NCBI GenBank assembly: GCA_965220325.1
Contig: OZ244821.1
Coordinates: 3,037,924 to 3,101,923, forward strand
Length of the DNA stretch: 64,000 bases
Direction: 5' to 3'
DNA from: Candidatus Poribacteria bacterium
Lineage (GTDB): Bacteria; Poribacteria; WGA-4E; WGA-3G
Shown here piece by piece: positions 1 through 52,296 of this stretch (within the stretch, counting starts at the first letter, position 1; every line of letters starts with the position of its first letter). The notes under the pieces are model-generated. The model was not told where the DNA came from. It searched no databases and worked only from the letters and a program-made list of their open reading frames with translations. The translations under genes and the position numbers were made by a program.

Positions 1-737
1 ATCGCAAGCATGAGGGCAGTGCTTGTCCGGCGAGTCGCCGCTGAAATCAGCATGCCGATTAGGTAGAACAGCGACAGATAGACAAATGATGTAAAAACGA
101 CCCCACCGATGCGCAGAAAATCATCCGTGCTTAGAAATATAGATGCAGATGTCGTTAGCATAATTAGCGCGAGGAGAATACACATCAATAAAGGTATCAG
201 CAGGCATATCATACCACTCATGTATTTGGCAAATAGGATTTGACCGTGGCGAACAGGATGCGTCAGCACAAGCCGTAATGTGCCGCGTTCGCGTTCTCCC
301 GCAAGCGTATCGTAAGCAAAGACGAGTGCCAATAGGCTCAGAATTCCTTGAAAAATAAAAACAAGATCAATCGCAGAGAAGAGATTGAGAAACGGGTTAT
401 CCGATCCATGTTTTCCAGCATCCCAGAGTGTTGGCACGAAGAAGTGATTAACACGGATTGTGTTCCCTAATCGTTTGTCTAAACCGACATTAAAAATGCT
501 CAACGGGTTGGGTGGACGATCAATTGTTAAGTGGGCTGCTGAATAAGTTGTTTGATTCAGCATTTCTTGCTGATGCTTTTTGACTGCAGTATTGTAACTT
601 GCCAGCCGCCGCTCGTAATCTCTGATGAGCACAGCAGTCGTAGCAACAACAAGTAGCAACATAATCAAGACAGCTGCCGCAAATCGGAACGTCATGAGGT
701 TGTCGAGGAGTTCTCGACGGATAAGTATTGTTAGCAT
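1..737 (-). CDS. ABC-2 family transporter permease (C-terminal part lies outside the window)
   Basis: Own minus-strand translation from ATG at 735-737: MLTILIRRELLDNLMTFRFAAAV... It has a GERERGTL motif and several hydrophobic helices, and is a paralog of the next gene. No stop codon before the window edge, so it is absent from the ORF track. Confidence 0.55.
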   Translation of the reverse strand, partial: MLTILIRRELLDNLMTFRFAAAVLIMLLLVVATTAVLIRDYERRLASYNTAVKKHQQEMLNQTTYSAAHLTIDRPPNPLSIFNVGLDKRLGNTIRVNHFFVPTLWDAGKHGSDNPFLNLFSAIDLVFIFQGILSLLALVFAYDTLAGERERGTLRLVLTHPVRHGQILFAKYMSGMICLLIPLLMCILLALIMLTTSASIFLSTDDFLRIGGVVFTSFVYLSLFYLIGMLISAATRRTSTALMLA

Positions 738-806: not shown

Positions 807-2213
807 TTAAATATCAACGCTGAAGAATTTTAGGAACGCTACGGTCGTCAACACAACTGCTAAGAAACAGAGCAGCAGTAAATCTACTATAGAGTGACGG
901 ACGGTTTCTGATAAGCGCGTTTTTGTCATATCTGGCGGCGGGGAAATTTTCTTTGGTTTTGGTTGATCTTGTCGCATGAACCTCGCAAATTGATCGTCTG
1001 AAATTTCATGGAAATATTCCGCCTCAAGTTGGTTATAATAACGCGCGCCCGTTTCAAAATAGGTGTCCCTTTTTATTTTGCCGGTCTCGGTTAAATTCAT
1101 GGCGACATAAATGAGTGAAGCTGTCGGTGTGATTCGGGAAAGGGTTTCTCCGACCGATTCTTGCCGCTTTTTTTCACGTTGATAGGCTCGTTCTATTTCG
1201 CCGACTTGCTCCTGAAATTTCTGTCGATATTCGGCATCAATCGGTTCCCTGAGTGCCCTGATTTTTTCCTGATCCCTGCTGAGGTTAAGCTCCCCTAAAG
1301 TGCTCATTTTTTTTAGAATCACCTGGTCCTTTTCTGTAGTGAGGTTATTATGAATCGCTGTTTTTTCCATATAGACGCTCTGAATCGCGCGTGTCGGTGC
1401 AATAAATTTAGCCGTGAGAAACCCAACGCGTGGGGCAATCAACACCGCAAGCACCCAGACAGTGAAGGCGACGATGAGTGCCGTCTTGGAATTGTCTAAA
1501 TAGGTGGAAATTAAGGTCCCTATTGCAAAAAATACGCCGATGTAGAGCAACGAGACGACGGTCAAACTGAGCACGCGTCCGAAGATGTCAGATTCACCCA
1601 GAGGAAACCCTTGCGAAACAAGCAAGAGCAAACCTAACAGGAATGACACCAAAAACGGGACAACAAACACGATATACCCACCCATTAGCTTGCTCCACAA
1701 GAACAAATCTCGTGGGAGTGCATTTGCCAAAGTTATCCGCAGCGTTCCGGCTTCTCTTTCCCCCGCAACGGCATCAAACGTGAACAATAGTGCCAGTAGA
1801 CTGAAAACGGTGCTGACAACAAATAGGAAATCAAGATTCCCTAAAGCAGAGGAGAGCGAGCCTTCCCCAAGCGATGTTGATCCGTGTTTTACACCGTTGC
1901 GGGTCATCCCAAGGTAACTCGGAAGGGATTCCCCTAAACCTTTTGCAAACACACTTAAAGGTGTCGGTTCAAGAAAAAGTTTAGAGAATTCTGTATCTGG
2001 AGCGGGCGGATCTCGAAGCCAATGAAGCGCATCATCGATTTCTGCAGCCGAGAGTTCGATAGCTGCCTGATAATTGACCTGATTTTGGAGGTAATTGCGG
2101 TAATTGATGTGCAAGGTCAGCGGTACGAGCAGAAGACACATCACGAGGAGCGCGACGAACCGGACGCTGAGGATATGATGCATCATCTCCTTTTGGATCA
2201 ATGTCAATAACAT
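807..2213 (-). CDS. ABC-2 family transporter permease with a large extracytoplasmic coiled-coil loop
   Basis: 468 aa. N-terminal TM helix, about 250 aa charged coiled-coil loop, then 5 TM helices with a GEREAGTL motif typical of ABC-2/NosY-like permeases. Its N-terminus resembles that of the upstream paralog. Confidence 0.6.
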   Translation of the reverse strand: MLLTLIQKEMMHHILSVRFVALLVMCLLLVPLTLHINYRNYLQNQVNYQAAIELSAAEIDDALHWLRDPPAPDTEFSKLFLEPTPLSVFAKGLGESLPSYLGMTRNGVKHGSTSLGEGSLSSALGNLDFLFVVSTVFSLLALLFTFDAVAGEREAGTLRITLANALPRDLFLWSKLMGGYIVFVVPFLVSFLLGLLLLVSQGFPLGESDIFGRVLSLTVVSLLYIGVFFAIGTLISTYLDNSKTALIVAFTVWVLAVLIAPRVGFLTAKFIAPTRAIQSVYMEKTAIHNNLTTEKDQVILKKMSTLGELNLSRDQEKIRALREPIDAEYRQKFQEQVGEIERAYQREKKRQESVGETLSRITPTASLIYVAMNLTETGKIKRDTYFETGARYYNQLEAEYFHEISDDQFARFMRQDQPKPKKISPPPDMTKTRLSETVRHSIVDLLLLCFLAVVLTTVAFLKFFSVDI

Positions 2214-2408: not shown

Positions 2409-5213
2409 TTAACGTTCCAAACGAAGCACACCACGATGCTCAGTGCCAACGTAAAAGGCATCTCTATCAACAACGAGAGACGTTATGGCACTTGGAATTT
2501 CAGGCACAATTTGTTCCCAAGTCCTTGTTTCCTTTGCTAAGTGATAGATGCCGTCGTCATTCGCGCCATAAACAGTGTCCTCTGTTGTTGCTAACGCCTT
2601 AATGATGGTGCTTTCTCCCGCGTTATCGGTGATTGCATTCCAAACAACGCCATCTTTTGAACTGAAAACGCCTTTGTCGGTTGCGACCTGAACCGTTGCG
2701 TCAGCAAAGACAATTTGATTGAAGCGTTCAACAGACAACGACAGATGTGGTGTAATGTCGTTCCAACTATCCCCACCATCAAGCGATTGGAAGAGCTGTC
2801 CGTCCCGTTTACCGACATAGACGGTCTCTCCTGAAACCGCAATTTTAAAACGTTGTGCCATGTTTTCACGTGTGAGTTCACAAGTCTCTTCAACGCCTGT
2901 ATCCGACCATCTTACGTCACCCGGATTCCATCGGAAGAGTTTATAGTTGTACTCCATGTAATACGTTTCGCCACTGATGGCGAAGCTGCCGTATAAACCC
3001 TCCAACATCAATGCGTAAGTGAGTTGACCATCGCCTTGTTCTCGACCCAACAATTTTAGAAAGCATTCTGCACCAAATCTCGGATTCTCGCGTATTGTCT
3101 GGGTTGATAAAGACTCAGAATTAACGTCTGGATCATCTGTAGAGCGGGTAAAGGTCATTTGGCCCTCTTGTCTCGGTAGCCGATAAGAATCAAAGGGGAA
3201 TGTCACTCCCTTGAACACCGTCCACATGAGACTTCCTGAATCTCGCGGAGGTGGTGTCTTTCCCTCTTCAAAAATATAACCCTCAACAGGCTCTAAACAA
3301 TTTTTATCTGGTACGAGATGATAATAAGCCGTCTCACAATTACGTCGAATTCCTTTTGCATACAGAACACCGTCGGCTTCGGAAATCTGTACAATTAGCG
3401 GCGTGTCTTCCCTATCTTTGAGTTTCGCATTGAACTTTGGTATTTCAAGCGTATACCTTGGTCGTAGGATGTCAACAGCAGTCCACGAGCTGCCTGCGTC
3501 TGTTGATTTGACGACACCCCCCGCAACCGTCGCGTACAAAGCCTTAGCTGCTTCTGAATTTGGACGCGTCTCTTCTAAACTGATTAAGTTATCCACGTGG
3601 CACTCAAACCTTGTATTGAATCGGTGCCAGGTTTCACCGCCGTCCCTTGAGCGATGGATGCCAGTGATGCCCCCTGTATAAAAGGTGTTTTCGTCTAAAG
3701 CGACAGCAGCGTTCACACTAAAAATCATGGGTGTAATGCCGGAGGATTCTGTGGAACGCCAAGTGTCTCCACAGTCTGTTGAGCGAGCCACAACGCCTTC
3801 CTCTCCACCTATCAGTAAGACGGTTTTTCCAGAGGCGACCAGTTTAATCGGCGGCAACGTTTTCATTAGAAGATTCCGGGCATCCGTGGGCGTTACATCT
3901 GTCCAAGAGTCGCCGCCATCGGTTGATCGGAAGACCCACCACGAATCCTTACGCATATCACACAAATTGTGGTAATTTTCACTTGGCGTTCCGTCCCCTT
4001 CAAATATATTTACTTCTACGGCGACATAGATAGTGTCTTCAGATACCACCAAAGAACGCACGACCACAGTATTGTCCACCGGCAACTGTAGGTGTTCCCA
4101 CGTTCCCGCGTTAAGACGGTAGATTCCGAGAGAGGTTCCGGCAAATAGCGTATCTCCGCTCAATTGTAGTGTATAAATTCCCGATTTCTGTGTGAAGCGG
4201 CTGTCTAAACCGTCATTCATGTTTTGCCATGAATTTCCTGCGTCATCAGATCGGAAAATACCTTTATTAAGGGTAACGTAAAAAGCATCTTCGGTAATCA
4301 GCAATTCCCTCACGTGTCCGTTTGGACAAGGACCGATAGCATTCCAAGTTTTGCCGTCATCGGTTGATGCGAACAACGTATCGGATGGAATTATATAAAG
4401 CGTGCCATCGTGTTCAGCAATAGGGATATCGCCTGCGGTCCCTTGACGCAAAAAATCGGTGTTGACAAGTTGCCATTCATTTTCACGCGCAGGCAATTTG
4501 TAAATGTTCTCATAACCCATCACTGCGTAGAGTGACCCATCCGAAGTTTTCGTTAGTGTCCCGACTGGTGCCGCCACGCCGGGTTCATTCATCTGAATCC
4601 ATTTCATAACATCCTCCATGATATCATCTGATACTTGGGAACTGCCCAAAGCTTCGCGAACGACAGGGGTCTCTTTTTGCAATCGTTTCCGGGCGCGGTG
4701 GAGTCGGCTCTTGATCGTGTTCGGCGACATCTCCAGAAAATCACCGATTTCTTCGCAACTCATCTCACTGAGATAGTGAAGTGCTACGACTGTCCGTTCG
4801 CGCTCCGTTAGTTTTTGCAGGAGGTATTCAACGATCTCGCGTTGCTTATCTGTTGCCGAGTTTTCGGTCTGTTCTGTCAGATATTGGGTGTAGAACAGTG
4901 CCTCTATCTCTGCTGTATCCATCGCCTCCAAAGATTGCATCGGGATTCTTTTCTCCGCAAGCCATGCGAGGGAACAGCGGGTAGCAATCATATAAAGCCA
5001 CCCTGAAAACCGGTTTGGGTCTCTCAGCGTTCCGAGTTTTTGGTAGGCTTTAAGGAAAGCGTCCTGCGTAATTTCTTCAGCGATTTGGTAATCTCTTACC
5101 CGGCGCCATAGGAATGCGTGTATCTGCTTCTCGTATTTTCTCACGAGTGCGGTGAAGGCACTTTCATCGCCTGCTAAGATACGTTCAACCCATTTCGCGT
5201 CGTCGTTTTTCAT
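2409..5213 (-). CDS. ECF (sigma-70 family) sigma factor fused to a C-terminal BNR/Asp-box beta-propeller domain
   Basis: 934 aa. The N-terminal 190 aa carry sigma70 region 2 (DAFLKAYQKLGTLRDPNRFSGWLYMIA) and region 4 (ERERTVVALHYLSEMSCEEIGDFLEMSPNTIKSRLHRARKRL). The remainder carries at least 8 S/T-x-D-x-G-x-T/S-W Asp-box motifs (STDDGKTW, SDDAGNSW, STDGGDSW, STDCGDTW, SRDGGETW, STDAGSSW, SLDGGDSW). No TM segment is apparent. The RBS GGAGGA precedes the ATG. Confidence 0.8.
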   Translation of the reverse strand: MKNDDAKWVERILAGDESAFTALVRKYEKQIHAFLWRRVRDYQIAEEITQDAFLKAYQKLGTLRDPNRFSGWLYMIATRCSLAWLAEKRIPMQSLEAMDTAEIEALFYTQYLTEQTENSATDKQREIVEYLLQKLTERERTVVALHYLSEMSCEEIGDFLEMSPNTIKSRLHRARKRLQKETPVVREALGSSQVSDDIMEDVMKWIQMNEPGVAAPVGTLTKTSDGSLYAVMGYENIYKLPARENEWQLVNTDFLRQGTAGDIPIAEHDGTLYIIPSDTLFASTDDGKTWNAIGPCPNGHVRELLITEDAFYVTLNKGIFRSDDAGNSWQNMNDGLDSRFTQKSGIYTLQLSGDTLFAGTSLGIYRLNAGTWEHLQLPVDNTVVVRSLVVSEDTIYVAVEVNIFEGDGTPSENYHNLCDMRKDSWWVFRSTDGGDSWTDVTPTDARNLLMKTLPPIKLVASGKTVLLIGGEEGVVARSTDCGDTWRSTESSGITPMIFSVNAAVALDENTFYTGGITGIHRSRDGGETWHRFNTRFECHVDNLISLEETRPNSEAAKALYATVAGGVVKSTDAGSSWTAVDILRPRYTLEIPKFNAKLKDREDTPLIVQISEADGVLYAKGIRRNCETAYYHLVPDKNCLEPVEGYIFEEGKTPPPRDSGSLMWTVFKGVTFPFDSYRLPRQEGQMTFTRSTDDPDVNSESLSTQTIRENPRFGAECFLKLLGREQGDGQLTYALMLEGLYGSFAISGETYYMEYNYKLFRWNPGDVRWSDTGVEETCELTRENMAQRFKIAVSGETVYVGKRDGQLFQSLDGGDSWNDITPHLSLSVERFNQIVFADATVQVATDKGVFSSKDGVVWNAITDNAGESTIIKALATTEDTVYGANDDGIYHLAKETRTWEQIVPEIPSAITSLVVDRDAFYVGTEHRGVLRLER

Positions 5214-5675
5214 GCGGATCCTCCAATCAACAATATTGACTTGTGATATGTGACAGGTATTATAGGGTGGTCGGTTGCAAATTCGTAATTTTGCGTCTAA
5301 ATACTCGATATTTGCGCAATTTGCGTCCGTCCTGATTAAATTATTTGCTTTTTTTCTAAAAATATCTTATAATATCAGTCAGATACAGTCTTTAATAATT
5401 TAATTATTGAAATTAAAAATTAAATTGACCGATTGTAACCCATTGGCGTGCCCGTTTGAAAAAGCGTCGCACAGTCAGTTTTTTCAACCCCAAAACCGAA
5501 TGTCTGAGAATAAAAATGCCAAGTAGATGCCTCAATACTAATATTACCAGATTGACTTTCCCCGCGCCCCGACTTGACAGTGTGTGTGGTGAGAGTGTGC
5601 ACTGCTGCTCAGGATATTCGTTGCTTCTGTGTATTATTAACTCAGAGTTAACTGTGTCATCTGCACGGTTAACAG

Positions 5676-5687
5676 CCCCCCCCCCCC
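5676..5687. repeat. Homopolymeric C12 tract in the divergent intergenic region, about 195 bp upstream of the giant adhesin gene
   Basis: 12 consecutive C residues counted in the sequence. Confidence 0.9.
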
Positions 5688-5747
5688 GCTTAACAATTAA
5701 TAAGTATTGTATTTTACAAAATAGTACAGCCTTCAAGGATGTCCTCT

Positions 5748-5800
5748 CTTTAGTCATGCCCGCGCGCGTTTCGTCTTGCACGGAACGTTTCGTCGCGGGC
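5748..5800 (+). promoter_or_regulatory. GC-rich hairpin (GCCCGCG...CGCGGGC, with an internal CGTTTCGTC direct repeat) followed by TGTTTTTATT. It is a terminator- or attenuator-like element in the leader of the giant gene.
   Basis: The inverted repeat and T-run were read from the sequence. It lies about 80 bp upstream of the TTG start at 5881. Confidence 0.35.
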
Positions 5801-5880
5801 TGTTTTTATTGCATTCGGCTTTTCTGAATGCGTCTTATCGCTACCACTTTCTATTGAATACCGATAAAGGAGTTTAGACC

Positions 5881-8800
5881 TTGCTATTGACAAACAAAAA
5901 ATGTATCGTATCAATTTTCCTAACCACTTTTATAGTTTTTTTAACACATATATCCGGTTACGCAGATATAACCCCTGTCCAGGATCGCACACCACAGATC
6001 CGGGATGCGATTGTTGCCGCAGTGCCAGGTGTTAACAGTGCCAACGATGTCACCGCAGCACACCTCGCAGCCATTGCAACCCTGGAGGCTTCCAATAAGT
6101 CAATCAGTGCTTTGAAAGCTGGAGATTTCGATGGCCTCACCGCGCTGACAACGCTCGATCTGTCTCGCAATACCATCAGCGATATATCTCTGCTTGGGAG
6201 CTTGACTGCACTGACGGCACTCGAACTGTCTCAGAATGCCATCACTGATATATCTGTTCTTAAGAAATTGACGAAACTCAGATGGCTCTTTCTATCTCAT
6301 AATGCCATCAGCGATATATCTCCGCTTAAGAACTTGACTGCACTGAAACATCTCTGGCTCGGTGGCAATGCCATCAAAGATATATCTGCGCTTGAGAAAT
6401 TGACGAAATTGAAAAAACTCTGGTTGTCTCGCAATGCTATCAGTGATATATCTGTGCTTGAGAAATTGACACCACTGACAGCACTCTGGCTGGATGGTAA
6501 TGCTATCAGCGATGTATCTGCGCTTGAAGGTCTAATCTCGTTAGTGAGTTTAAATCTCAGTGGCAATCCGATTTCGGATTACGGTCCGCTGCGTAGACTC
6601 AAAACCGCCAATCCGGATATAACCATTGATATTGATATTGATGAGAATGATAATAGCGCGCCTGTATTCACCGCTGGCAGTAGCACGACGCGGTCTGTTG
6701 CGGAGAACACGGCTTCCGGCACAAACATCGGCAGTGCGGTATCCGCGACAGATACCGATAATGATACCTTAACCTATACGCTGGGGGGTACGGATGCGGC
6801 TTCGTTTCGTATTGTTTCGACCTCGGGACAACTCCGAACCAATGCTGCACTGGATTATGAAACGAAATCGTCCTACTCCGTGACTGTCTCCGTTTCTGAT
6901 AGTAATGGTGGCAGCGATAGCATTCCTGTCACGATCAGTGTGACGAACGTCAACGAAGCACCTAACTTCGCCAGCAGCACCGCGACGCGTTCGATAGCAG
7001 AGAACACGGCATCTGGTACAAATATCGGGACTGCTATTACTGCGACAGATGTGGATACCGGCGATACACCAACCTATACACTGGGTGGCACGGATGCGAG
7101 TTCGTTTAGCATCGTCAGCACATCCGGTCAACTCCGAACCAACGCTGCATTGAATTATGAAACGAAATCGTCCTATTCCGTGACGGTCACTGCCAGGGAT
7201 GCGGGTAACCTCTCGGATACGATCAGTGTCACAATCAGCATCACAGATGTCAACGAGGCACCCAACTTCGCAAGCAGCACAGCGACGCGTTCGATAGCAG
7301 AGAACACGGCATCGGGACAAAACATCGGAGCTGCTGTGGCAGCGACAGATGTTGATGGCGACACCCTCTCCTATACGCTCGGTGGCACGGATGCGAGTTC
7401 GTTCAGTATCGTCAGCACATCCGGTCAACTCCGAACGAGTGCGGCTTTGGACCGTGAAACAAAAGCCTCCTACTCCGTGACAGTCACTGCCTCCGATGGG
7501 AGTCTATCGGATACGACCACCGTCACGATCAGTGTGACCAACGTCAACGAAGCACCTAACTTCGCAAGCAGCACAGCAACACGGTCCATAGCAGAAAACA
7601 CCGCCTCCGGTCAAAACATCGGCACCGCTCTCACTGCGACAGACCCAGATGGCGATACACTCTCCTATACGCTGGGTGGCACGGATGCGAGTTCGTTTAG
7701 CATTGTGTCCAATTCCGGTCAACTCCGAACGAGTGCGGCTTTGGACCGTGAAACAAAAGCCTCCTATTCCGTGACAGTCACTGCCTCCGATGGGAGTCTG
7801 TCGGATACGACCACTGTCACGATCAATGTGACGAACGTCAACGAAGCACCTGTATTCACAGAAGGTAGCACAGCGACGCGTTCGATAGCGGAGAACACGA
7901 CTTCCGGCACAAACATCGGAGCTGCTGTGGCAGCGACAGATGTCGATGGTGATACCCTCTCCTATACACTCGGTGGCACGGATGCGAGTTCGTTTAGCAT
8001 CGTCAGCACGTCTGGTCAACTCCGAACCAGTGCGGCTTTGGACCGTGAAACAAAAGCCTCCTACTCTGTGACAGTCACTGCCTCCGATGGGAGTCTGTCG
8101 GATACGACCACTGTCACGATCAATGTGACGAACGTCAACGAGGCACCCACTTTCGCAACTACCACAGCAACGCGCTCGGTCGCAGAGAACACGGCAGCCA
8201 ATCAAAACATCGGCGCAGCTTTCACCGCAACGGATGTCGATAGTGGGACTACGCTCACCTATTCGATCCCTACAACCGGGGATGCCGCAGCCTTCAGCAT
8301 CGTCAGCAATACAGGGCAACTGAAAACAAAGAATACCCTGAACTATGAAGTTAAAAACGCCTATACGGTTGTTGTGACGGCTTCCGATGGAAGTTTGACC
8401 GATACGATCACCGTCACGATCAGTGTCACAAACGTCAATGAGACACCGACGTTTGCTACCGGAACAACCATCAGTAGTATTTCTGCCACCAAAGGAACGG
8501 CAATCACCTCCGTGACCTTGCCAGCAGCAACGGACCCTGACGCGAACACTACTATCACATACACGGTGACACCGACACTCCCCGCCGGGTTGACATTTAC
8601 GCCTTCAACGCGTATCCTCTCAGGCACACCTACGGCTGTGTCGGCTTCAGCGACTTATACCTATACGGCGAGTGATAGCAACCTTTCAGACACTTTGACG
8701 TTCACAATTCAAGTGAACGCGCCTGCTAACAACGCACCGACGTTCACGGATGGCACCAGCACGACGCGCTCGGTCGCAGAGAACACCGCTTCAGGGCAAA

Positions 8801-11800
8801 ACATCGGCAGTGCCGTCGGCGCAACCGATACGGATAACGACACGCTCAGCTATACCCTCGGTGGCACCGATGCCGCATCTTTCAGTATCGTCAGCACGAC
8901 AGGACAACTCCAAACCAACACTGCCCTAAATTACGAAAGCAAGTCGTCTTATTCTGTGTCAGTGTCTGTCTCTGATAACAACGGCGGCAGCGATAGTATC
9001 GCTGTCACGATCAATGTGACGAACGTCAATGAGGCACCAAGTTTCGCAAGCACCACTGCGACACGTTCGATAGCAGAGAACACCGCAGCCAACACAAATA
9101 TCGGCGCGGCTGTTGCTGCGACAGATGTCGATGGCAACACCCTCTCCTATACACTGGGTGGCACGGACGCAAGCTCATTTAGCATCGTCAGCACGTCTGG
9201 TCAACTCCGAACCAGTGCAGCCCTGGACCGTGAAACAAAAGCCTCCTATTCCGTGACGGTCACTGCCTCCGATGGCAGCCTGTCGGATACGACCACCGTC
9301 ACAATCAATGTGACGAACGTCAACGAAGCACCTAACTTCGCGAGCAGCACCGCAACACGCTCCATAGCAGAGAACACCGCCTCCGGTCAAAACATCGGCA
9401 CTGCCGTTGCGGCGACAGACCCAGATGGCAACACCCTCTCCTATACACTGGGTGGCACGGATGCGAGTTCATTTAGCATCGTCAGCACGTCTGGTCAACT
9501 CCGAACCAGTGCTGCTTTGGACCGTGAAACAAAAGCCTCCTATTCTGTGACAGTCACTGCCTCCGATGGGAGTCTATCGGATACGATCACCGTCACGATC
9601 AATGTGACGAACGTCAACGAGGCACCTAACTTCGCAAGCACCACAGCAACACGCTCTATAGCGGAGAACACGGTTTCCGGTCGAAACATCGGGACTGCCG
9701 TCGCCGCAACGGATGTTGACCATACTTCACTTACCTATACGCTGGGTGGCACGGATGCGAGTTCGTTTAGCATCGTCAGCACGTCCGGTCAACTCCGAAC
9801 CAGTGCAGCCCTGGACCGTGAAACAAAAGCCTCCTATTCTGTGACAGTCACTGCCAGGGATGCGGGTAACCTCTCAGATACGATCACCGTCACGATCAAT
9901 GTGACGAACGTCAACGAGGCACCAAGTTTCGCAAGCACCACAGCAACACGCTCCATAGCGGAGAACACGGTTTCCGGTCGAAACATCGGGACTGCCGTCG
10001 CCGCAACGGATGTTGACCATACTTCACTCACCTATACTTTGGGTGGTACGGATGCGAGTTCGTTTAGCATCGTCAGCACGTCTGGTCAACTGCGAACCAG
10101 TGCGGCTTTGGACCGTGAAACAAAAGCCTCCTACTCTGTGACAGTCACTGCCAGGGATGCGGGTAACCTCTCGGATACGATCACTGTCACGATCAATGTG
10201 ACGAACGTCAACGAGGCACCAAGTTTCGCAAGCACCACTGCGACGCGCTCTATAGCAGAGAACACGGTTTCTGGTCGAAACATCGGGACTGCCGTCGCCG
10301 CAACGGATGTTGACCATACTTCACTCACCTATAGTCTTGGTGGCACGGATGCGAGTTCATTTAGCATCGTCAGCACGTCTGGTCAACTGCGAACCAGTGC
10401 TGCTTTGGACCGTGAAACAAAAGCCTCCTACTCTGTGACAGTCACTGCCAGGGATGCGGGTAACCTCTCGGATACGATCACCGTCACAATCAATGTGACG
10501 AACGTCAACGAGGCACCGAGTTTCGCAAGCACCACAGCAACACGCTCCATAGCGGAGAACACGGTTTCCGGTCGAAACATCGGCACTGCTGTATCTGCGA
10601 CAGATGTTGATGGCAACACGCTCACCTATAGTCTCGGTGGCACGGATGCGAGTTCGTTCAGTATCGTCAGCACATCGGGTCAACTCCGAACGAGTGCAGC
10701 TTTGGACCGTGAAACAAAAGCCTCATATTCTGTGACAGTCACTGCCAGGGATGCGGGTAACCTCTCGGATACGATCACCGTCACGATCAATGTGACAAAC
10801 GTCAATGAGGCACCAAGTTTCGCAACTACCACCGCGACGCGCTCGGTCGCAGAGAACACGGCAACCAATCAAAACATCGGCACAGCTCTCACCGCAACGG
10901 ATGTCGATAGTGGCACCACGCTCACCTATTCGATAGCGACAACCGGGGATGCCGCAGCCTTCAGCATCGTCAGCAATACAGGGCAACTGAAAACAAAGAA
11001 TACCCTGAACTATGAAGTTAAAAACGCCTATACGGTCGTTGTGACGGCTTCCGATGGAAGTTTGACCGATACGATCACCGTCACAATCAGTGTGACAAAC
11101 GTCAATGAGGCACCCACTTTCGCAACTACCACCGCGACGCGCTCGGTCGCAGAGAACACGGCAACCAATCAAAACATTGGCACGGCTCTCACCGCAACGG
11201 ATGTTGATAGTGGCACCACGCTCACCTATTCGATCCCGACAACCGGGGATGCCGCAGCCTTCAGCATCGTCAGCAATACAGGGCAACTGAAAACAAAGAA
11301 TGCCTTGAACCATGAAACAAAAGCCTCCTATACGGTCATTGTGACGGCTTCCGACGGAACTTTGTCAGATACCATCACCGTCACGATCAGTGTCACAAAC
11401 GTCAACGAAGCACCGAGTTTCAGCACTTCGGGGAGGGTCACGCTCTCCGTCGCAGAGAACACGGCAGCCAACACCAACATCGGCACCCCCTTCCAGGCAA
11501 CAGACCCCGATAGTGGGGATACAGTGACCTATTCGCTGCAGCGAGCCGATAAGACCTCGTTCCGTATTGACGCAAATACGGGGCAGCTGAAAACCCACGC
11601 GGCACTTGACTATGAAACGAAAAATTCTTACAGCAATCTCGCCGTCCGCGCGGCTGATAGCGGGGGTCTCGTCAGTAGCGTCCTTGTCACTGTCAACGTT
11701 ACAAATGTCAATGATAATTCCCCCGTGTTCACGGAGGGTGCCAGCACGACGCGGTCTATCGCAGAGAACACGGATTTCGGCACAAACATCGGAACTCCGG

Positions 11801-14778
11801 TCGCTGCGACGGATGCCGATAATGATACCCTCAGCTATACACTGGGCGGCACGAATGCATCCTCATTTTACATTATTGGCACATCCGGGCAGCTGAGAAC
11901 AGGCTCCGTCGCCTTGGATTATGAAACGAAATCGTCCTATTCGGTCACGGTCAACGTTTCTGATGGCAACGGTGGGAGTGATAGTATCGCTGTCACCATC
12001 AACGTTACAGATGTTGATGAATCGCCTGCAAACAGCGCACCGACCTTCACGGATGGCACCAGTACCACACGCACTGTTGCGGAGAACACCGCTTTAGGCA
12101 CCTACGTCGGAAGTGCGGTTGCTGCGACCGTTGCGAATAACGCCACACTCACCTATACGCTGAGTGGCGCGGATGCGGCCTCGTTTAGCATTGGCAGTGC
12201 CTCCGGGCAGATCCAAACAAATGCTGCCATGGATTATGAAGTCAAGAATTCCTACACCGTCACGGTTGACGTTTCTGGTAGCAATGGCGGGAGTGACAGT
12301 ATCACCGTCACCATCAATGTTACAGATGAAGCCGAATCCCCGATAGCACCGCCGCTCAGTGACCGCACGCCACAAGTGCGCGCTGCGATTGTTGCTGCAG
12401 CACCAGGCGTTAGCAATGTTGCTGATGTGACCGTAGCACACCTCGCAGCGATTGCCTCCCTGAATTTGTCGAATAGGTCAATCCGTTCTCTAAAAACTGG
12501 GGATTTCAATGGACTCACCGGAATGGGAGCACTCGATCTGCATCTCAACTCGATCAGTGATATATCTGCCCTGAGTGGATTGACCCAACTGAGACATCTT
12601 GATCTGGGCTTCAATTCGATCAGTGATATATCTGCCCTGAGTGGCATGACCTCAATGGTCAATCTCAGTCTGCTTAACAATTCGATCAGTGATATATCTG
12701 CCCTGAGTGGCATGACTTTGATGACAAGTCTCGGTCTGTCTAACAATTCGATCAGTGATATATCTGCCCTGAGTGGCATGACCTTGATAGACACTCTCAA
12801 TCTAACGAACAATAACGTTACGGATGTATCTGCCCTGAGTGGCATGACCTCGCTATTCATCTTATCTGTCGCAGGGAATCCGATTTCGGATTATGGTCCC
12901 CTCCGGACCCTCAAGGCAGCAAATCCGAATGCCCGCCTTGATATTAGCCTTAATAACAACCCACCCGTCTTCACTGAAGGCACCAGTGCCACGCGGTCTA
13001 TTGCAGAGAATACGGCATCTGGCACAAACATAGGCACTGCGGTTGCTGCGACCGATGCGGATAACCATACCCTTAGATATAGTTTGGGTGGCACGGATGC
13101 GGCTTCGTTCAGCATTGTCAGCACATCAGGACAGCTCCGCACAAATGCTGCCCTGGATTATGAAACGAAGTCCTCTTATGCTGTAACAATCACCGTTTCT
13201 GATGGAAATAACGGGGGTGATAGTATCAGCGTCACCATCAATGTTACAGATGTAGTTGAGCATGACCCCGTGTTCACGGATGGCGACACCACGACGCGGT
13301 CTGTTGCGGAGAACTCCGGTAGAGGCACCAACGTCGGAACTCCGGTGGCTGCGACCGATGCGAATACCGGCGACACACTCACCTATACGCTCGGTGGCAC
13401 CGATGCCGCATCGTTTAGCATTGTCTCCACATCCGGGCAGCTCCGAACCAATGCTACTCTGGATTATGAAACCAAGAGCTCCTACACTGTCACGGTTGAC
13501 GTTTCTGACGGTACTGGCGGGAGTGACAGTATCACCGTCACCATCAATGTTACAGATGTCGAGGAATCCACGATAACACCTGTAAAGGATCGCACGACGC
13601 AGGTACGGGATGCGATTGTTGCTGCGGTGTCAGGCGTTAGCAATGCTGACGATGTGACCGAAGCACACCTCGCAGCGATTACAGAATTGAATCTCGGATC
13701 AAAGTCAATCACTACGCTGAAGGCTGGCGATTTCAGTGGACTCACCGGACTCGAAACGCTCTATCTGGACAGCGAGTCGCCCAGTGATACACATAAAAAT
13801 TCGATCAGTGATATATCACCCCTTGAAGGCTTGACTACCCTGACAAGGCTCAATCTGCTTTACAATTCGGTCAGCGATATATCTGCGCTGAGTGGCATGA
13901 CTTCAATGAGCCAGCTTAATCTGGATAACAATTCGGTCAGTGATATATCTGCCTTGAGTGGCATGACTTCAATGACCATTCTCAGTATGAAGAACAATAA
14001 CGTTACGGATGTATCTCCCCTGAGTGGCATGACCACGATGTTCATCTTATCTGTCGCAGGGAATCCGATTTCAGATTACGCTACCCTCCGGACACTCCAG
14101 GCACATTCGCTTTGGGTACTTGATATTAGTCTTAATAACAACCCACCGACGTTCACCGATGGTGCCACCACCACGCGCTCGGTCGCCGAGAACACGGCAG
14201 CGGGACAAAACATCGGCAGTGCAGTCTCTGCGACGGATGCGAATAACCATACGCTCACCTATAGTCTCGGTGGCACGGATGCGGATTCGTTTAGCATCGT
14301 TTCCACCTCCGGGCAGCTCCAAACCAAAGCAGCACTCGACTATGAAACGAAGAACAGCTATACGGTAACAGTGACTGCTTATGACGGCAATAACGGTGGG
14401 GACAGAATCACCGTCACGATCAATGTCACCGACGTAGCAGCTGCTGCACCGGTTGTGCTAACACCGCCAGCACCCGTGCTGCCGAACACAACCGAGTTGC
14501 TGACAAACTTCCCGAACCCGTTCAACCCGGAGACGTGGATACCGTATCAGCTCGCCAAACCGGCAGATGTGACGCTAACCATCTACGATATCCGCGGTCG
14601 TATCGTGCGGACGTTGCGATTAGGGCACCAACCTGCAGGTTTCTACCAGAATCGGAGCAAGGCAGCGCATTGGGATGGACGAAATCATCTCGGTGAAAAG
14701 GTCGCCACAGGCGTGTATTTCTACACCCTCAAAGCCGGCGATTACATGGCAACCCGCAAGCTCTTGATACGGAAATAG
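5881..14778 (+). CDS. Giant secreted surface protein (2965 aa): signal peptide, 3 leucine-rich-repeat modules, about 25 cadherin-like repeats, C-terminal T9SS-type (Por_Secre_tail-like) sorting domain
   Basis: TTG start 8 nt after AAGGAG. The N-terminus is hydrophobic. LxxLxLxxNxISDIS 22-residue LRRs occur at aa 70-230 and again near nt 12360-12960 and 13560-14130. Each LRR module opens with DRTPQIRDAIVAAxPGV. There are about 100-aa repeats ending in NVTNVNEAP with TDVDGD calcium-binding-like motifs. The C-terminus GVYFYTLKAGDYMATRKLLIRK matches the T9SS C-terminal domain pattern. Confidence 0.9.
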   Translation: MLLTNKKCIVSIFLTTFIVFLTHISGYADITPVQDRTPQIRDAIVAAVPGVNSANDVTAAHLAAIATLEASNKSISALKAGDFDGLTALTTLDLSRNTISDISLLGSLTALTALELSQNAITDISVLKKLTKLRWLFLSHNAISDISPLKNLTALKHLWLGGNAIKDISALEKLTKLKKLWLSRNAISDISVLEKLTPLTALWLDGNAISDVSALEGLISLVSLNLSGNPISDYGPLRRLKTANPDITIDIDIDENDNSAPVFTAGSSTTRSVAENTASGTNIGSAVSATDTDNDTLTYTLGGTDAASFRIVSTSGQLRTNAALDYETKSSYSVTVSVSDSNGGSDSIPVTISVTNVNEAPNFASSTATRSIAENTASGTNIGTAITATDVDTGDTPTYTLGGTDASSFSIVSTSGQLRTNAALNYETKSSYSVTVTARDAGNLSDTISVTISITDVNEAPNFASSTATRSIAENTASGQNIGAAVAATDVDGDTLSYTLGGTDASSFSIVSTSGQLRTSAALDRETKASYSVTVTASDGSLSDTTTVTISVTNVNEAPNFASSTATRSIAENTASGQNIGTALTATDPDGDTLSYTLGGTDASSFSIVSNSGQLRTSAALDRETKASYSVTVTASDGSLSDTTTVTINVTNVNEAPVFTEGSTATRSIAENTTSGTNIGAAVAATDVDGDTLSYTLGGTDASSFSIVSTSGQLRTSAALDRETKASYSVTVTASDGSLSDTTTVTINVTNVNEAPTFATTTATRSVAENTAANQNIGAAFTATDVDSGTTLTYSIPTTGDAAAFSIVSNTGQLKTKNTLNYEVKNAYTVVVTASDGSLTDTITVTISVTNVNETPTFATGTTISSISATKGTAITSVTLPAATDPDANTTITYTVTPTLPAGLTFTPSTRILSGTPTAVSASATYTYTASDSNLSDTLTFTIQVNAPANNAPTFTDGTSTTRSVAENTASGQNIGSAVGATDTDNDTLSYTLGGTDAASFSIVSTTGQLQTNTALNYESKSSYSVSVSVSDNNGGSDSIAVTINVTNVNEAPSFASTTATRSIAENTAANTNIGAAVAATDVDGNTLSYTLGGTDASSFSIVSTSGQLRTSAALDRETKASYSVTVTASDGSLSDTTTVTINVTNVNEAPNFASSTATRSIAENTASGQNIGTAVAATDPDGNTLSYTLGGTDASSFSIVSTSGQLRTSAALDRETKASYSVTVTASDGSLSDTITVTINVTNVNEAPNFASTTATRSIAENTVSGRNIGTAVAATDVDHTSLTYTLGGTDASSFSIVSTSGQLRTSAALDRETKASYSVTVTARDAGNLSDTITVTINVTNVNEAPSFASTTATRSIAENTVSGRNIGTAVAATDVDHTSLTYTLGGTDASSFSIVSTSGQLRTSAALDRETKASYSVTVTARDAGNLSDTITVTINVTNVNEAPSFASTTATRSIAENTVSGRNIGTAVAATDVDHTSLTYSLGGTDASSFSIVSTSGQLRTSAALDRETKASYSVTVTARDAGNLSDTITVTINVTNVNEAPSFASTTATRSIAENTVSGRNIGTAVSATDVDGNTLTYSLGGTDASSFSIVSTSGQLRTSAALDRETKASYSVTVTARDAGNLSDTITVTINVTNVNEAPSFATTTATRSVAENTATNQNIGTALTATDVDSGTTLTYSIATTGDAAAFSIVSNTGQLKTKNTLNYEVKNAYTVVVTASDGSLTDTITVTISVTNVNEAPTFATTTATRSVAENTATNQNIGTALTATDVDSGTTLTYSIPTTGDAAAFSIVSNTGQLKTKNALNHETKASYTVIVTASDGTLSDTITVTISVTNVNEAPSFSTSGRVTLSVAENTAANTNIGTPFQATDPDSGDTVTYSLQRADKTSFRIDANTGQLKTHAALDYETKNSYSNLAVRAADSGGLVSSVLVTVNVTNVNDNSPVFTEGASTTRSIAENTDFGTNIGTPVAATDADNDTLSYTLGGTNASSFYIIGTSGQLRTGSVALDYETKSSYSVTVNVSDGNGGSDSIAVTINVTDVDESPANSAPTFTDGTSTTRTVAENTALGTYVGSAVAATVANNATLTYTLSGADAASFSIGSASGQIQTNAAMDYEVKNSYTVTVDVSGSNGGSDSITVTINVTDEAESPIAPPLSDRTPQVRAAIVAAAPGVSNVADVTVAHLAAIASLNLSNRSIRSLKTGDFNGLTGMGALDLHLNSISDISALSGLTQLRHLDLGFNSISDISALSGMTSMVNLSLLNNSISDISALSGMTLMTSLGLSNNSISDISALSGMTLIDTLNLTNNNVTDVSALSGMTSLFILSVAGNPISDYGPLRTLKAANPNARLDISLNNNPPVFTEGTSATRSIAENTASGTNIGTAVAATDADNHTLRYSLGGTDAASFSIVSTSGQLRTNAALDYETKSSYAVTITVSDGNNGGDSISVTINVTDVVEHDPVFTDGDTTTRSVAENSGRGTNVGTPVAATDANTGDTLTYTLGGTDAASFSIVSTSGQLRTNATLDYETKSSYTVTVDVSDGTGGSDSITVTINVTDVEESTITPVKDRTTQVRDAIVAAVSGVSNADDVTEAHLAAITELNLGSKSITTLKAGDFSGLTGLETLYLDSESPSDTHKNSISDISPLEGLTTLTRLNLLYNSVSDISALSGMTSMSQLNLDNNSVSDISALSGMTSMTILSMKNNNVTDVSPLSGMTTMFILSVAGNPISDYATLRTLQAHSLWVLDISLNNNPPTFTDGATTTRSVAENTAAGQNIGSAVSATDANNHTLTYSLGGTDADSFSIVSTSGQLQTKAALDYETKNSYTVTVTAYDGNNGGDRITVTINVTDVAAAAPVVLTPPAPVLPNTTELLTNFPNPFNPETWIPYQLAKPADVTLTIYDIRGRIVRTLRLGHQPAGFYQNRSKAAHWDGRNHLGEKVATGVYFYTLKAGDYMATRKLLIRK

Positions 14779-14788
14779 TTGTCAGTTA

Positions 14789-15084
14789 TTGTAAAGCCCG
14801 AAAATAGGTTGACATTTACCAAATCTCCAGATTCCCCCCTGATAAGGGGGGTTAGGGGGGTTCTACCGATTAAGGTGTCCAATTAATTATGGATTTCACT
14901 ATAAGAGGGAAACTTATCAATTACATTTCCCTCTTATTGTAAAGCCCGAAAATAGGTTGACCTTTACCGAATCTCCAGATTCCCCCCTGATAAGGGGGGT
15001 TAGGGGGGTTCTACCGATTAAGGTGTCCAATTAATTATGGATTTCACTATAAGAGGGAAACTTATCAGTCACATTTCCCTCTTA
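14789..15084. repeat. Two tandem copies of a 156-bp unit. Each contains CCCCCCTGATAAGGGGGGTTAGGGGGG and a 10-bp-stem hairpin AAGAGGGAAA-N16-TTTCCCTCTT.
   Basis: Read from the sequence immediately 3' of the giant gene stop. The copies differ at about 4 positions. They are related to the repeat at 2261-2401 by the C5-TGATAA-G5-TTAGGGGG core. Confidence 0.85.
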
Positions 15085-15375
15085 ACCGAAATGAAGATTA
15101 ATTTATTGCAGGCGGGGTGTTTTGCTGGGGTGTTTCTTCCAGTATCCCCGCCGAATTTTTGTGCTGTCCTTTTCACAACTCCTAAAACTTAATATATATT
15201 ACCTAAAATATGTATATAATTAAAACAATTCTCTAAAATTTTCGCAGCATTTCGCTAGATTTCGCAGCATTTCGCTACCAGAACGCTATGTTTTCCGAGA
15301 AATCTCATCTAACAGAACAGGCTACATTTACAACGGTAGAAAGGACAGTTTTTCTCGGAAAGCAAAAATAGATGA

Positions 15376-51698: not shown

Positions 51699-51774
<76 letters not shown>

Positions 51775-51797
51775 TCAAAATGGAACATTTAACACGA

Positions 51798-51871
<74 letters not shown>

Positions 51872-51904
51872 GTTTTCATATTGTTGATGGCAGCATTAAA
51901 ATAT

Positions 51905-51978
51905 GGTGGATGTAGCTCAGGGGTAGAGCACTTGACTGTGGATCAAGTGGTCGTGGGTTCAAATCCCATCATCCACCC
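51905..51978 (+). tRNA. tRNA-His (anticodon GTG)
   Basis: Acceptor GGTGGAT/ATCCACC. Anticodon stem CTTGA/TCAAG with loop CTGTGGA. T-loop GGTTCAAATCC. Confidence 0.85.
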
Positions 51979-51984
51979 TCATGA

Positions 51985-52057
51985 GCGTCCGTAGTTCAAT
52001 GGATAGAGCAATAGTCTTCGGAACTATAAGTTGGGGGTTCGAATCCCTCCGGACGCG
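51985..52057 (+). tRNA. tRNA-Arg (anticodon TCG)
   Basis: Acceptor GCGTCCG/CGGACGC. Anticodon stem ATAGT/ACTAT with loop CTTCGGA. T-loop GGTTCGAATCC. Confidence 0.75.
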
Positions 52058-52113
52058 AATACTTATGGATGCCGAGCGGGCACTTCAAAAGCAGTATAGC
52101 AGAATGAGCAAGT

Positions 52114-52186
52114 GCGCCGTTAGCTCAATTGGCAGAGCATCTGACTCTTAATCAGGCGGTTGAAGGTTCGATTCCTTCACGGCGCA
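52114..52186 (+). tRNA. tRNA-Lys (anticodon CTT)
   Basis: Acceptor GCGCCGT/ACGGCGC. Anticodon stem TCTGA/TCAGG with loop CTCTTAA. T-loop GGTTCGATTCC. Confidence 0.75.
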
Positions 52187-52210
52187 TCGTCGATAACGCG
52201 GACAGAATTC

Positions 52211-52296
52211 GGGCGGGTGCTGGAATTTGGTAGACAGGATAGACTTAGGATCTATTGGGGTTACGCCTCGTGAGGGTTCAAGTCCCTCCTCGCCCA
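52211..52296 (+). tRNA. tRNA-Leu (anticodon TAG), class II with long variable arm
   Basis: Acceptor GGGCGGG/CTCGCCC (one G-U pair). Anticodon stem ATAGA/TCTAT with loop CTTAGGA. T-loop GGTTCAAGTCC. 86 nt. Confidence 0.8.

Follow-up and report, generated by a model that had tools for sequence, protein, structure and literature searches.

How can an extracytoplasmic function (ECF) sigma factor be kept in check when no separate anti-sigma gene is seen beside its own gene and when its polypeptide runs on into a repeat domain of some 700 residues? The question is raised by a gene close to one end of a 64,000-nucleotide (nt) stretch of DNA, hereafter the window, which covers positions 3,037,924–3,101,923 of the forward strand of Candidatus Poribacteria contig OZ244821.1 (assembly GCA_965220325.1). 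We think it probable that the product of this gene, termed here the sigma-propeller, is a cytoplasmic, self-activating ECF sigma factor with a C-terminal double BNR propeller, which arose from a Poribacteria family of paralogues containing a transmembrane (TM) helix. A preliminary description of the window had recognised the fusion, and had joined it with a giant adhesin gene, transcribed divergently from it, into one dedicated module. Two questions have to be answered. First, what is this protein and from what does it derive? Second, to which of its neighbours is it tied?

The comparison set consisted of the window and 81 further loci, with 143 distinct sigma-propeller genes in all. The closest species representative is L025 (93% amino-acid and ~92% nt identity). 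Three further close relatives, L082–L084, were examined apart from the comparison loci, and L085 and L086 are loci that carry homologues of the giant gene.

The sigma-propeller protein

The gene and the parts of its product are as follows.
2409–5213, reverse strand: coding sequence of the 934-residue ECF sigma/double BNR propeller fusion, a member of the TM-less clade (open reading frame (ORF), Pfam, NCBIfam, more than 120 homologues, and the ratio of non-synonymous to synonymous substitution rates, dN/dS)
5219–5224, reverse strand: GGAGGA, the likely ribosome-binding site, 5 nt before the ATG (read from the sequence)
4956–5147, reverse strand: sigma2 domain, residues 23–86 (Pfam PF04542 Sigma70_r2, 46.6 bits)
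4680–4838, reverse strand: sigma4 domain, residues 126–178, containing Cys153 (Pfam PF08281 Sigma70_r4_2, 56 bits)
4509–4643, reverse strand: short linker, residues 191–235 (alignment with the TM-containing paralogues, hydropathy of the paralogues)
2412–4508, reverse strand: C-terminal BNR/Asp-box domain, residues 236–934, probably two tandem beta-propellers (Asp-boxes, AlphaFold2 (AF2), Foldseek)
2991–3275, reverse strand: low-confidence insert in the propeller, residues 647–741 (predicted local distance difference test, pLDDT, of AF2)

The ORF is intact and starts with ATG, and TTGGAGG is kept at the position of the ribosome-binding site in the orthologues. The protein has sigma2 and sigma4 domains without sigma1 or sigma3, the composition of an ECF (group 4) sigma factor; the Pfam and NCBIfam search of the window protein found no sigma3 domain. 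The NCBIfam model TIGR02937 (sigma70-ECF) scores 91.9 against a cut-off of 42.9, SigY is among the other NCBIfam matches, and no equivalog model of NCBIfam reaches its cut-off. The nearest solved proteins by sequence are, for the sigma part, the ECF sigma factors 8z6g_B, SigW (5wuq) and RpoE (1or7), while the C-terminal part matched no solved protein. The identification of the N-terminus as an ECF sigma factor is thus fully borne out.

The same holds for the C-terminus, for which a search with profile hidden Markov models had been proposed. Pfam places Sortilin-Vps10, DUF6242, PSII_BNR and BNR on residues 237–928, with PF15902 at 53.5 (cut-off 33) and PF14870 at 36.8 (cut-off 27). Canonical SxDxGxxW Asp-boxes lie at residues 283, 322, 430, 478, 522, 570 and 810; together with a degenerate one at 852 they make the earlier count of at least eight slightly generous. 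No TM helix was found in the window protein, in agreement with the preliminary description, the maximal Kyte–Doolittle hydropathy over 19 residues being 1.32, well under what a TM helix needs. The extension after sigma4, about 745 residues without a TM helix, exceeds the 50-residue threshold for ECF groups with soluble C-terminal extensions. Pfam detects no WD40, SnoaL-like or TPR extension in the protein.

Is the fusion real? Among 5.8 billion proteins, more than 120 clusters of full-length homologues were found, 926–954 residues long and 63–91% identical, in all of which Pfam detects the sigma as well as the propeller domains; every named member belongs to Candidatus Poribacteria, and the public records call them merely 'sigma-70 family RNA polymerase sigma factor'. 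Estimated against seven orthologues, dN/dS is 0.08–0.10 for the sigma domain in those pairs that allowed an estimate (in the two most distant ones dS is saturated), 0.13–0.27 for the two parts of the propeller and 0.24–0.45 for the insert at residues 647–741. Both halves of the protein are under purifying selection. Since both halves occur together in more than 120 homologues and dN/dS is low, a frameshift, an assembly join or a pseudogene, the first two of which had been named as findings that would refute the fusion, is excluded.

A family that normally spans the membrane

When residues 200–934 alone were searched against 1.84 billion representative proteins, 223 representatives were found at E<1e-30, and in many of these, 965–1045 residues long, the match starts near residue 320 and not 200. 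These longer proteins open with the same ECF sigma domain (Pfam) and possess one strong TM helix at about residues 220–240, with a hydropathy of 2.0–2.6. The helix is preceded by a conserved linker, FQLPxxLTENIMxEI...KPLxPW, and followed by a conserved juxtamembrane segment, RFQxPYSLDAxSE.... Only about 35 residues lie between sigma4 and the helix, and no zinc-finger anti-sigma domain was detected in the TM-containing paralogues. A scan of one genome per GTDB species gave at least 591 pattern matches; 538 encode relatives among the matches listed, and the 77 best loci are all from Poribacteria. Of the distant TM-containing representatives, a single one carries a name in its cluster record, again Poribacteria.

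The two forms are clearly separated. The 43 full-length TM-less genes, including that of the window, encode 908–939 residues with the propeller starting from residue 236, whereas the ~94 TM-containing genes encode 946–1054 residues with exactly one TM helix and the propeller starting from near residue 350. Their lengths do not overlap, and the one-TM form makes up about two thirds of the members sampled. In the alignment, the block absent from the TM-less proteins is one contiguous stretch of ~118 residues between ...DIMEDVM and KWIQMNEPG..., and in the window protein the site of these extra residues, TM helix included, is the M203|K204 junction (nt 4605/4604). This gap indicates that the TM-less clade is derived from a family that normally spans the membrane, a descent which was invisible to the preliminary description, so that its reading of a protein without a TM helix was right for the protein and incomplete for its origin. 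In the TM-containing members the topology would place the sigma domain in the cytoplasm and the propeller outside. Because the juxtamembrane and TM segment of ~118 residues is gone, both halves of the window protein are expected to be cytoplasmic.

The two forms differ also in their cysteines. Cys153 in sigma4 (nt 4755–4757) is present in 46 of 46 TM-less members against 17 of 93 TM-containing ones, and a cysteine at 80 or 81 in sigma2 (nt 4971–4976) is kept throughout the family, with C81 in all 93 TM-containing members. As a lead only, the pair may form a redox or metal link between sigma2 and sigma4, perhaps acquired when the TM segment was lost.

TM-containing genes often stand in tandem, in arrays of up to six. 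Single-strand arrays of three to six were seen in L059 (316–19808), L036, L037, L060 and L061, and many of their genes carry a copy of the TGCAACC...CGTCAC promoter described below. One gene, L008 16145–19237, encodes 1030 residues with a TM segment, a propeller of the TM-less type (56% identical) and a duplicated linker motif, FQHSDDLMEDIVKW, whose second copy lies just before the propeller; it has an ABC-2 gene downstream, and its sequence suggests either a chimera or an intermediate in the evolution of the family.

The sigma gene has a promoter of its own

5247–5284, reverse strand: ECF-type promoter of the sigma gene (family position weight matrix (PWM), 38.9 bits; single regular-expression match)

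Within this promoter, a –35 element TGCAACC (5279–5273) is followed by a –10-like GTCAC (5254–5250), and a TATAAT hexamer (5264–5259) sits in the spacer. The family promoter reads TGCAACC-N17-yGTCAC and lies ~35–60 nt upstream of the start codon. Conservation is striking over the 130 nt in front of the TM-less genes; two flavours occur, and which of them a gene has goes with the type of its sigma domain. Where the sigma domain shares 74% identity or more with that of the window (type 1), the gene has AATTACGAATTTGCAACC-N10-TATAAT-N3-TGTCAC in 22 of 23 cases, the exception having an insertion, and where it is ~55% identical the gene has ATGCAACC-N16-GTATCA in 22 of 22; the corresponding core patterns are GCAAC-N18-20-GTCAy (22/23) and GCAAC-N15-17-GTATC (22/22), respectively. 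The TM-containing paralogues have ATGCAACCGTTTT...CGCGTCAC (TGCAACC...CGTCAC), with GCAAC and GTCAC spaced as in the window.

A PWM built from 46 sites gives 38.9 bits at 5284→5247 on the reverse strand, the sole positive site in the 64 kb, the next best scoring –1.3. Over all loci the core motif has 60 sites, of which 49 stand before sigma-propeller genes and 5 before sigma-only fragments; none of the 60 precedes an ABC-2 or a giant gene. An ECF-style –35/–10 pair at this place is, judged in silico, the usual signature of positive autoregulation.

The identities to the window protein are discordant between the two halves in some members (54% for sigma and 87% for the propeller in L007, against 93% and 90% in L001), from which frequent domain-level recombination among the paralogues follows. 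As the promoter flavour tracks the type of the sigma domain, promoter and sigma domain appear to recombine together as one block.

ABC-2 permease genes follow the TM-less clade

The same-strand neighbours of the sigma gene are the following.
807–2213, reverse strand: ABC-2-type permease-like gene, 468 residues, six TM helices, directly downstream of the sigma gene (PF12679 ABC2_membrane_2, E 2.2e-29)
1–737, reverse strand: second ABC-2 permease gene, first 245 codons, cut by the window edge (93% identical to a permease of L001)
2260–2400, no strand assigned: hairpin-forming intergenic repeat of 47 nt, TTAAAGTCCCCCTGATAAGGGGGATTTAGGGGGTTAAATACATCGAA, in three perfect tandem copies (Tandem Repeats Finder score 282)

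Orthologues of the first permease (90–96% identical) follow the sigma gene in L025, L006, L009, L010 and L082, and the L001 permease that matches the second likewise follows its own sigma gene. The linkage is specific to the clade. An ABC-2 homologue lies within 4 kb of 34 of 43 TM-less genes against 6 of 94 TM-containing ones (Fisher p = 7e-18, uncorrected for shared ancestry), and directly downstream in 19/40 against 1/87. The usual layout runs from NTP_transf_3 through sigma-propeller A, one to three permease genes, sigma-propeller B and two permease genes to a LamG-domain protein. No ABC ATPase gene is among the called genes of L001, L002, L082 and L083. Beside the window sigma gene no separate anti-sigma gene is seen, its same-strand neighbours being permeases; the Pfam lists of L001–L004 and L082–L084 hold no anti-sigma domain, although Pfam often misses anti-sigma factors that have diverged.

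Six TM helices are predicted for the window permease, along with a 94-residue loop and a charged segment of 178 residues between TM5 and TM6. It matches NosY (276 residues) weakly, and its two large non-membrane segments have no counterpart there. The charged segment was considered as a cytoplasmic docking platform and rejected, as the usual ABC-2 topology puts the TM5–TM6 stretch outside.

Could the permeases be the missing membrane partner? In such an arrangement they would act as membrane partner or anti-sigma factor, holding or releasing the sigma-propeller in line with transport activity or a signal from the envelope, and substituting in trans for the lost TM segment. The clade-specific linkage and the missing ATPase genes would fit, as would the two large segments that NosY lacks, and the slot directly downstream of an ECF gene is the usual position of an anti-sigma gene (PMC7826278). 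However, a contact between permease and sigma factor is purely hypothetical, the large segments are probably extracytoplasmic if the usual ABC-2 topology holds and would leave little surface in the cytoplasm, the permease paralogues that come after the sigma gene differ among its orthologues, and a simple co-transcribed output accounts for the linkage equally well. We regard this arrangement as possible and rather unlikely.

The 47-nt repeat separates the sigma gene from the first ABC-2 gene; each unit has a CCCCC/GGGGG hairpin, and copies are scattered in the intergenic DNA of many Poribacteria loci, such as L006, L009, L057, L062 and L071. In L025 the gap between the sigma and ABC-2 genes is 26 bp. 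The repeat appears to behave like a repetitive extragenic palindromic (REP) element or miniature inverted-repeat transposable element (MITE). Small secreted proteins at the ends of clusters, LamG-like and others, share a C-terminal TTTWG(N/D)(I/L)K (L021 11245–12096, L031 8267–9133, L070 3111–3869 and L067 7002–8018), conceivably a sorting tag peculiar to the lineage.

Predicted fold of the C-terminal domain

An AF2 model of the full protein, built with 43 close homologues, has a mean pLDDT of 61.8, with 70–90 over the propeller regions (residues 219–645 and 744–934) and below 50 over most of residues 1–218 and over residues 647–741. It contains about 13–14 four-stranded units and a disordered insert at residues 647–741. 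In a Foldseek search against the Protein Data Bank, xyloglucanases of glycoside hydrolase family 74 (GH74) come first (2cn3_A, E 1.6e-18), followed by the periplasmic sensor domains of the Bacteroides hybrid two-component systems (HTCS) BT4673 and BT4663 (E 6e-18 to 1e-15), with template-modelling scores of merely 0.2–0.31 and 13–14% identity to GH74. With moderate confidence, the model is that of a tandem beta-propeller of the GH74/HTCS-sensor class, a fold that does not decide between enzyme and sensor.

If the domain were an enzyme, a GH74-like glycoside hydrolase or a sialidase-like protein, the fusion would couple catalysis to transcription. GH74 xyloglucanases are indeed the best structural matches, and the NCBIfam model 'F510_1955 family glycosylhydrolase' matches the window protein at 109 bits; yet this is well under its cut-off of 175, identity and template-modelling scores are as low as given above, and the non-catalytic HTCS sensor domains match structurally equally well. 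An enzymatic role of the modelled domain is therefore given little credence here.

A working model

In the reading that we favour, that of a cytoplasmic, self-activating sigma factor, the protein would transcribe its own operon, the sigma gene followed by the ABC-2 permease genes, from the promoter at 5247–5284. The cytoplasmic propeller would take the place of a separate anti-sigma factor and gate the sigma domains in cis, by analogy with ECF41 and ECF42, and the gating signal would be a cytoplasmic ligand or a protein partner. The permeases would be either the main output of the operon or its input at the membrane. The TM-containing paralogues, for their part, would each unite a transmembrane sensor and a sigma factor in one polypeptide, and among documented mechanisms the regulated intramembrane proteolysis of IutY comes nearest to them.

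Several points weigh against this reading. The contact between the propeller and the sigma domains is argued from analogy, and the AF2 model is silent on their interface, as the pLDDT of the sigma part is below 50. With template-modelling scores of 0.2–0.3, the call of two propellers rests on E-values, the count of Asp-boxes and the ~13–14 units. The link between promoter flavour and sigma type could reflect adjacency within recombination blocks rather than recognition, and, since the type-1 promoter holds a perfect TATAAT, transcription by the housekeeping sigma factor may occur. For the sigma factor, no target was identified beyond the operon of its own gene. Finally, the sets of ABC-2 genes vary among orthologues, 9 of 43 TM-less genes have no permease within 4 kb, and the cytoplasmic loops of the window permease are predicted to be short.

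A bolder version, to which we attach only a slight chance, takes the large Poribacteria family as one of single-polypeptide transmembrane sensor-sigma proteins, in which an HTCS-like double propeller outside the cell would be coupled straight to an ECF sigma factor inside. One clade would then have shed the membrane segment, so as to sense a ligand in the cytoplasm and cooperate with orphan ABC-2 permeases. The sigma-propeller might then sense a substrate imported by the permeases, or their transport state. If true, this would be a mode of ECF regulation undescribed so far and a possible sponge-symbiont counterpart of the glycan-sensing regulators of Bacteroides.

The family is of interest in any case as a natural experiment, in which dozens of membrane-spanning and membrane-free versions, each with a recognisable promoter, occur in one phylum. 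The locus makes it possible to ask directly by what means a sensor domain acts on a tethered sigma factor, and what loss of the tether alters. For Poribacteria, which are abundant symbionts of sponges and have not been cultured, these paralogues probably account for a large share of environmental sensing.

The giant adhesin gene shows no tie to the sigma gene

On the other side of the sigma gene lie the following features.
5881–14778, forward strand: giant secreted cadherin/leucine-rich repeat (LRR)/Big_9 gene, 2965 residues, with a FlgD_ig/Por_Secre_tail-like C-terminus (Pfam, C-terminal sequence)
5669–5697, forward strand: sigma-70-like promoter candidate of the giant gene, TTAACA-17-AACAAT (promoter scan, homopolymer scan)
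5758–5831, forward strand: leader of the giant gene, with a G+C-rich 43-nt hairpin (5758–5800), a U-run to 5808 and a second hairpin (5811–5831) (RNA fold)
5294–15358, no strand assigned: 10,066-bp segment with the giant gene and its upstream cassette, without counterpart in L025 and outside the sigma module (comparison of L025 and window by blastn)

The preliminary description took the interval 5214–5880 as a promoter region shared by the two genes. The divergent LRR/cadherin gene, the C12 tract and the strong hairpin with its U-run are all present as described. Are the two genes then a dedicated pair under one control region, with the sigma factor driving the adhesin? They are divergent and only 667 bp apart in the window, ECF sigma factors often control envelope or surface functions, and the equivalent spot in L084 is taken by genes for other secreted proteins that end in the same sorting domain.

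Comparison with the relatives speaks clearly against such a pair. The homology of L025 runs from the sigma gene to window position 5293 and resumes at 15359, inside the PhyH flank, and in place of window 5294–15358 L025 has 321 unrelated, repeat-rich bp (L025 9600–9920) in which CTAAATTGACACCTATGG recurs, in part inverted, and a number of short G+C hairpins occur. The breakpoint lies immediately upstream of the sigma promoter, which is left intact. The divergent neighbour of the sigma gene is PhyH in L025 and L083, the gap between the two being 0.3–0.75 kb in two close genomes; L084 has ~9.6 kb of Ldl_recept_b/FlgD_ig secreted-protein genes at the junction, L001 defence-like genes and L082 the ancestral NTP_transf_3. 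Given so many different occupants, the junction is hypervariable. No giant gene lies divergently upstream of any of the other 42 TM-less genes of the comparison loci, nor is one so placed in the three relatives L082–L084, so that the proposed module fails the test of co-occurrence.

The control region is likewise not shared, since the sigma promoter occupies 5247–5284 and 5335–5900 is the giant gene's own conserved cassette. This cassette, of ~560 bp, is 77–80% identical upstream of the two nearest giant-gene homologues examined, in L085 (about 7510–8000) and L086 (about 7480–8020), and neither locus has a sigma-propeller gene within 8 kb of the homologue. The family promoter motif is absent from 5294–5880, where the best PWM score is –12.1 against 38.9 for the sigma promoter, and the motif GGAAC-N16-CGTT, suggested earlier as the mark of sigma control, has no match in 5214–5880, nor has GGAAC-N15-18-CGT. 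A dedicated pair is thus highly improbable, and the giant adhesin gene is a neighbour of the sigma gene and a separate unit, not linked to it as a partner.

What, then, is the cassette for? The giant protein has an identical database entry and no orthologue, the next best homologues being 56–65% identical. In the promoter candidate, the C12 tract (5676–5687) makes up most of the 17-nt spacer between the conserved TTAACA and AACAAT, and the poly-C length varies, with C12 in the window, C10 in L085 and C11 in L086, between conserved flanks. The 146-nt leader, which L085 and L086 also keep before their homologues, has a folding energy of –43.9 kcal/mol (z –2.96); a consensus terminator scan with narrow loop and stem limits missed the hairpin at 5758–5800, which folding shows clearly. 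As the same cassette precedes both homologues, the C12 tract and the hairpin belong to it. The poly-C tract may make expression phase-variable, and a putative attenuator comes after it in the leader. Homopolymer-spacer promoters are known to drive phase-variable genes for surface proteins, e.g. Neisseria opc and porA and Bordetella fim, and the cassette resembles these in its arrangement, as judged from sequence. Correction of the plausible but wrong sigma–adhesin pairing thus yields a candidate for phase-variable surface proteins of a symbiont.

A first scan of metagenome DNA for the poly-C flanks gave no match; the four matches of a second scan were discarded as chance, having no similarity outside the 20-mer. 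Two ORFs of ~122 residues overlie the cassette, 5413–5781 on the reverse and 5456–5827 on the forward strand, and are probably not genes; the latter spans the poly-C and would shift frame with the length of the tract. The last ~100 residues of the giant protein (LTNFPNPFNPETWIPY..., window 14479–14778) are 67% identical to the C-terminus of the L084 Ldl_recept_b protein (8684–9016). Because the two proteins are otherwise unrelated, the FlgD_ig/Por_Secre_tail-like end is a shared secretion or sorting domain. An Rfam scan of the window found six tRNAs only, in a gene cluster at 51699–52296 on the forward strand, and no match in 5214–5880.

Hardly credible, lastly, is a decaying, functionless remnant of a membrane-spanning paralogue, which the missing TM segment and a highly duplicated, recombining family might suggest, for the frame is intact in more than 120 clusters at 63–91% identity, dN/dS is 0.08–0.27 outside the insert, the promoter and the GGAGG before the start are conserved and Cys153 is fixed in the clade.

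Comparison with known systems

Fusion of a C-terminal domain to an ECF sigma factor is a recognised but poorly understood mode of transcriptional regulation, and few of the groups concerned have been studied experimentally. Such regulatory extensions are established in 19 ECF groups, one of them with WD40-like repeats (PMC7826278, PMC8999054), and the SnoaL-like extension of ECF41 and the TPR (tetratricopeptide repeat) extension of ECF42 modulate the core sigma domains (PMC7826278, PMC8999054, PMC3426412). The literature searched describes no BNR-propeller extension of a sigma factor, no dimorphism of TM and TM-less forms and no ECF sigma factors of Poribacteria.

Like ECF41 and ECF42, the window protein combines a minimal sigma2–sigma4 core with a large fused soluble domain, is likely to be autoregulated from an ECF-type promoter and has no adjacent anti-sigma gene in sight. 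Different from them, its extension is a BNR double propeller of ~700 residues and not SnoaL or TPR, is linked to ABC-2 permease genes, and descends from the putative extracytoplasmic sensor domain of the TM-containing paralogues.

ECF57 of the Planctomycetes has C-terminal extensions rich in WD40-like repeats, and two conserved cysteines have been proposed to link its sigma2 and sigma4 (PMC8999054). Here, too, a sigma factor is fused to repeats of the beta-propeller type, the fold class alone being shared, and the TM-less clade has Cys80/81 and Cys153, a possible likeness drawn from the description of ECF57 and not from its sequence. The repeats of the window protein are of the Asp-box/BNR, Sortilin-Vps10 and PSII_BNR kinds instead of WD40, and the phylum differs.

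IutY of Pseudomonas putida (ECF243) and SCO4117 (ECF52) are membrane-tethered sigma/anti-sigma hybrids, the former being released by regulated proteolysis (PMC8999054). The TM-containing paralogues share with them an N-terminal sigma domain, one TM helix and a putative extracytoplasmic sensor. In contrast, the window protein has no TM helix, and its TM-containing paralogues have only the ~35 residues between sigma4 and the helix and no detected zinc-finger anti-sigma domain.

In Bacillus subtilis, the sigY-yxlCDEFG operon (ECF31) holds an ECF sigma gene co-transcribed with ABC-2 transporter components, together with an ATPase partner. SigY has small separate negative regulators, YxlC and YxlD (PMC7826278). 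As in this operon, the ECF sigma gene of the window stands beside ABC-2 transporter genes; unlike it, no separate gene for a small regulator or an ATPase is seen, and the sigma factor carries its propeller fused.

The HTCS family of Bacteroides has expanded into many paralogues, as has the Poribacteria family, and its sensors BT4663 and BT4673 have a tandem beta-propeller fold like that modelled here. The output differs, being an ECF sigma factor and not a histidine kinase, receiver and AraC module, and the repeats are of the BNR type. Whereas the HTCS sensor domains are periplasmic, the propeller of the TM-less clade would be cytoplasmic, where it may bind a ligand.

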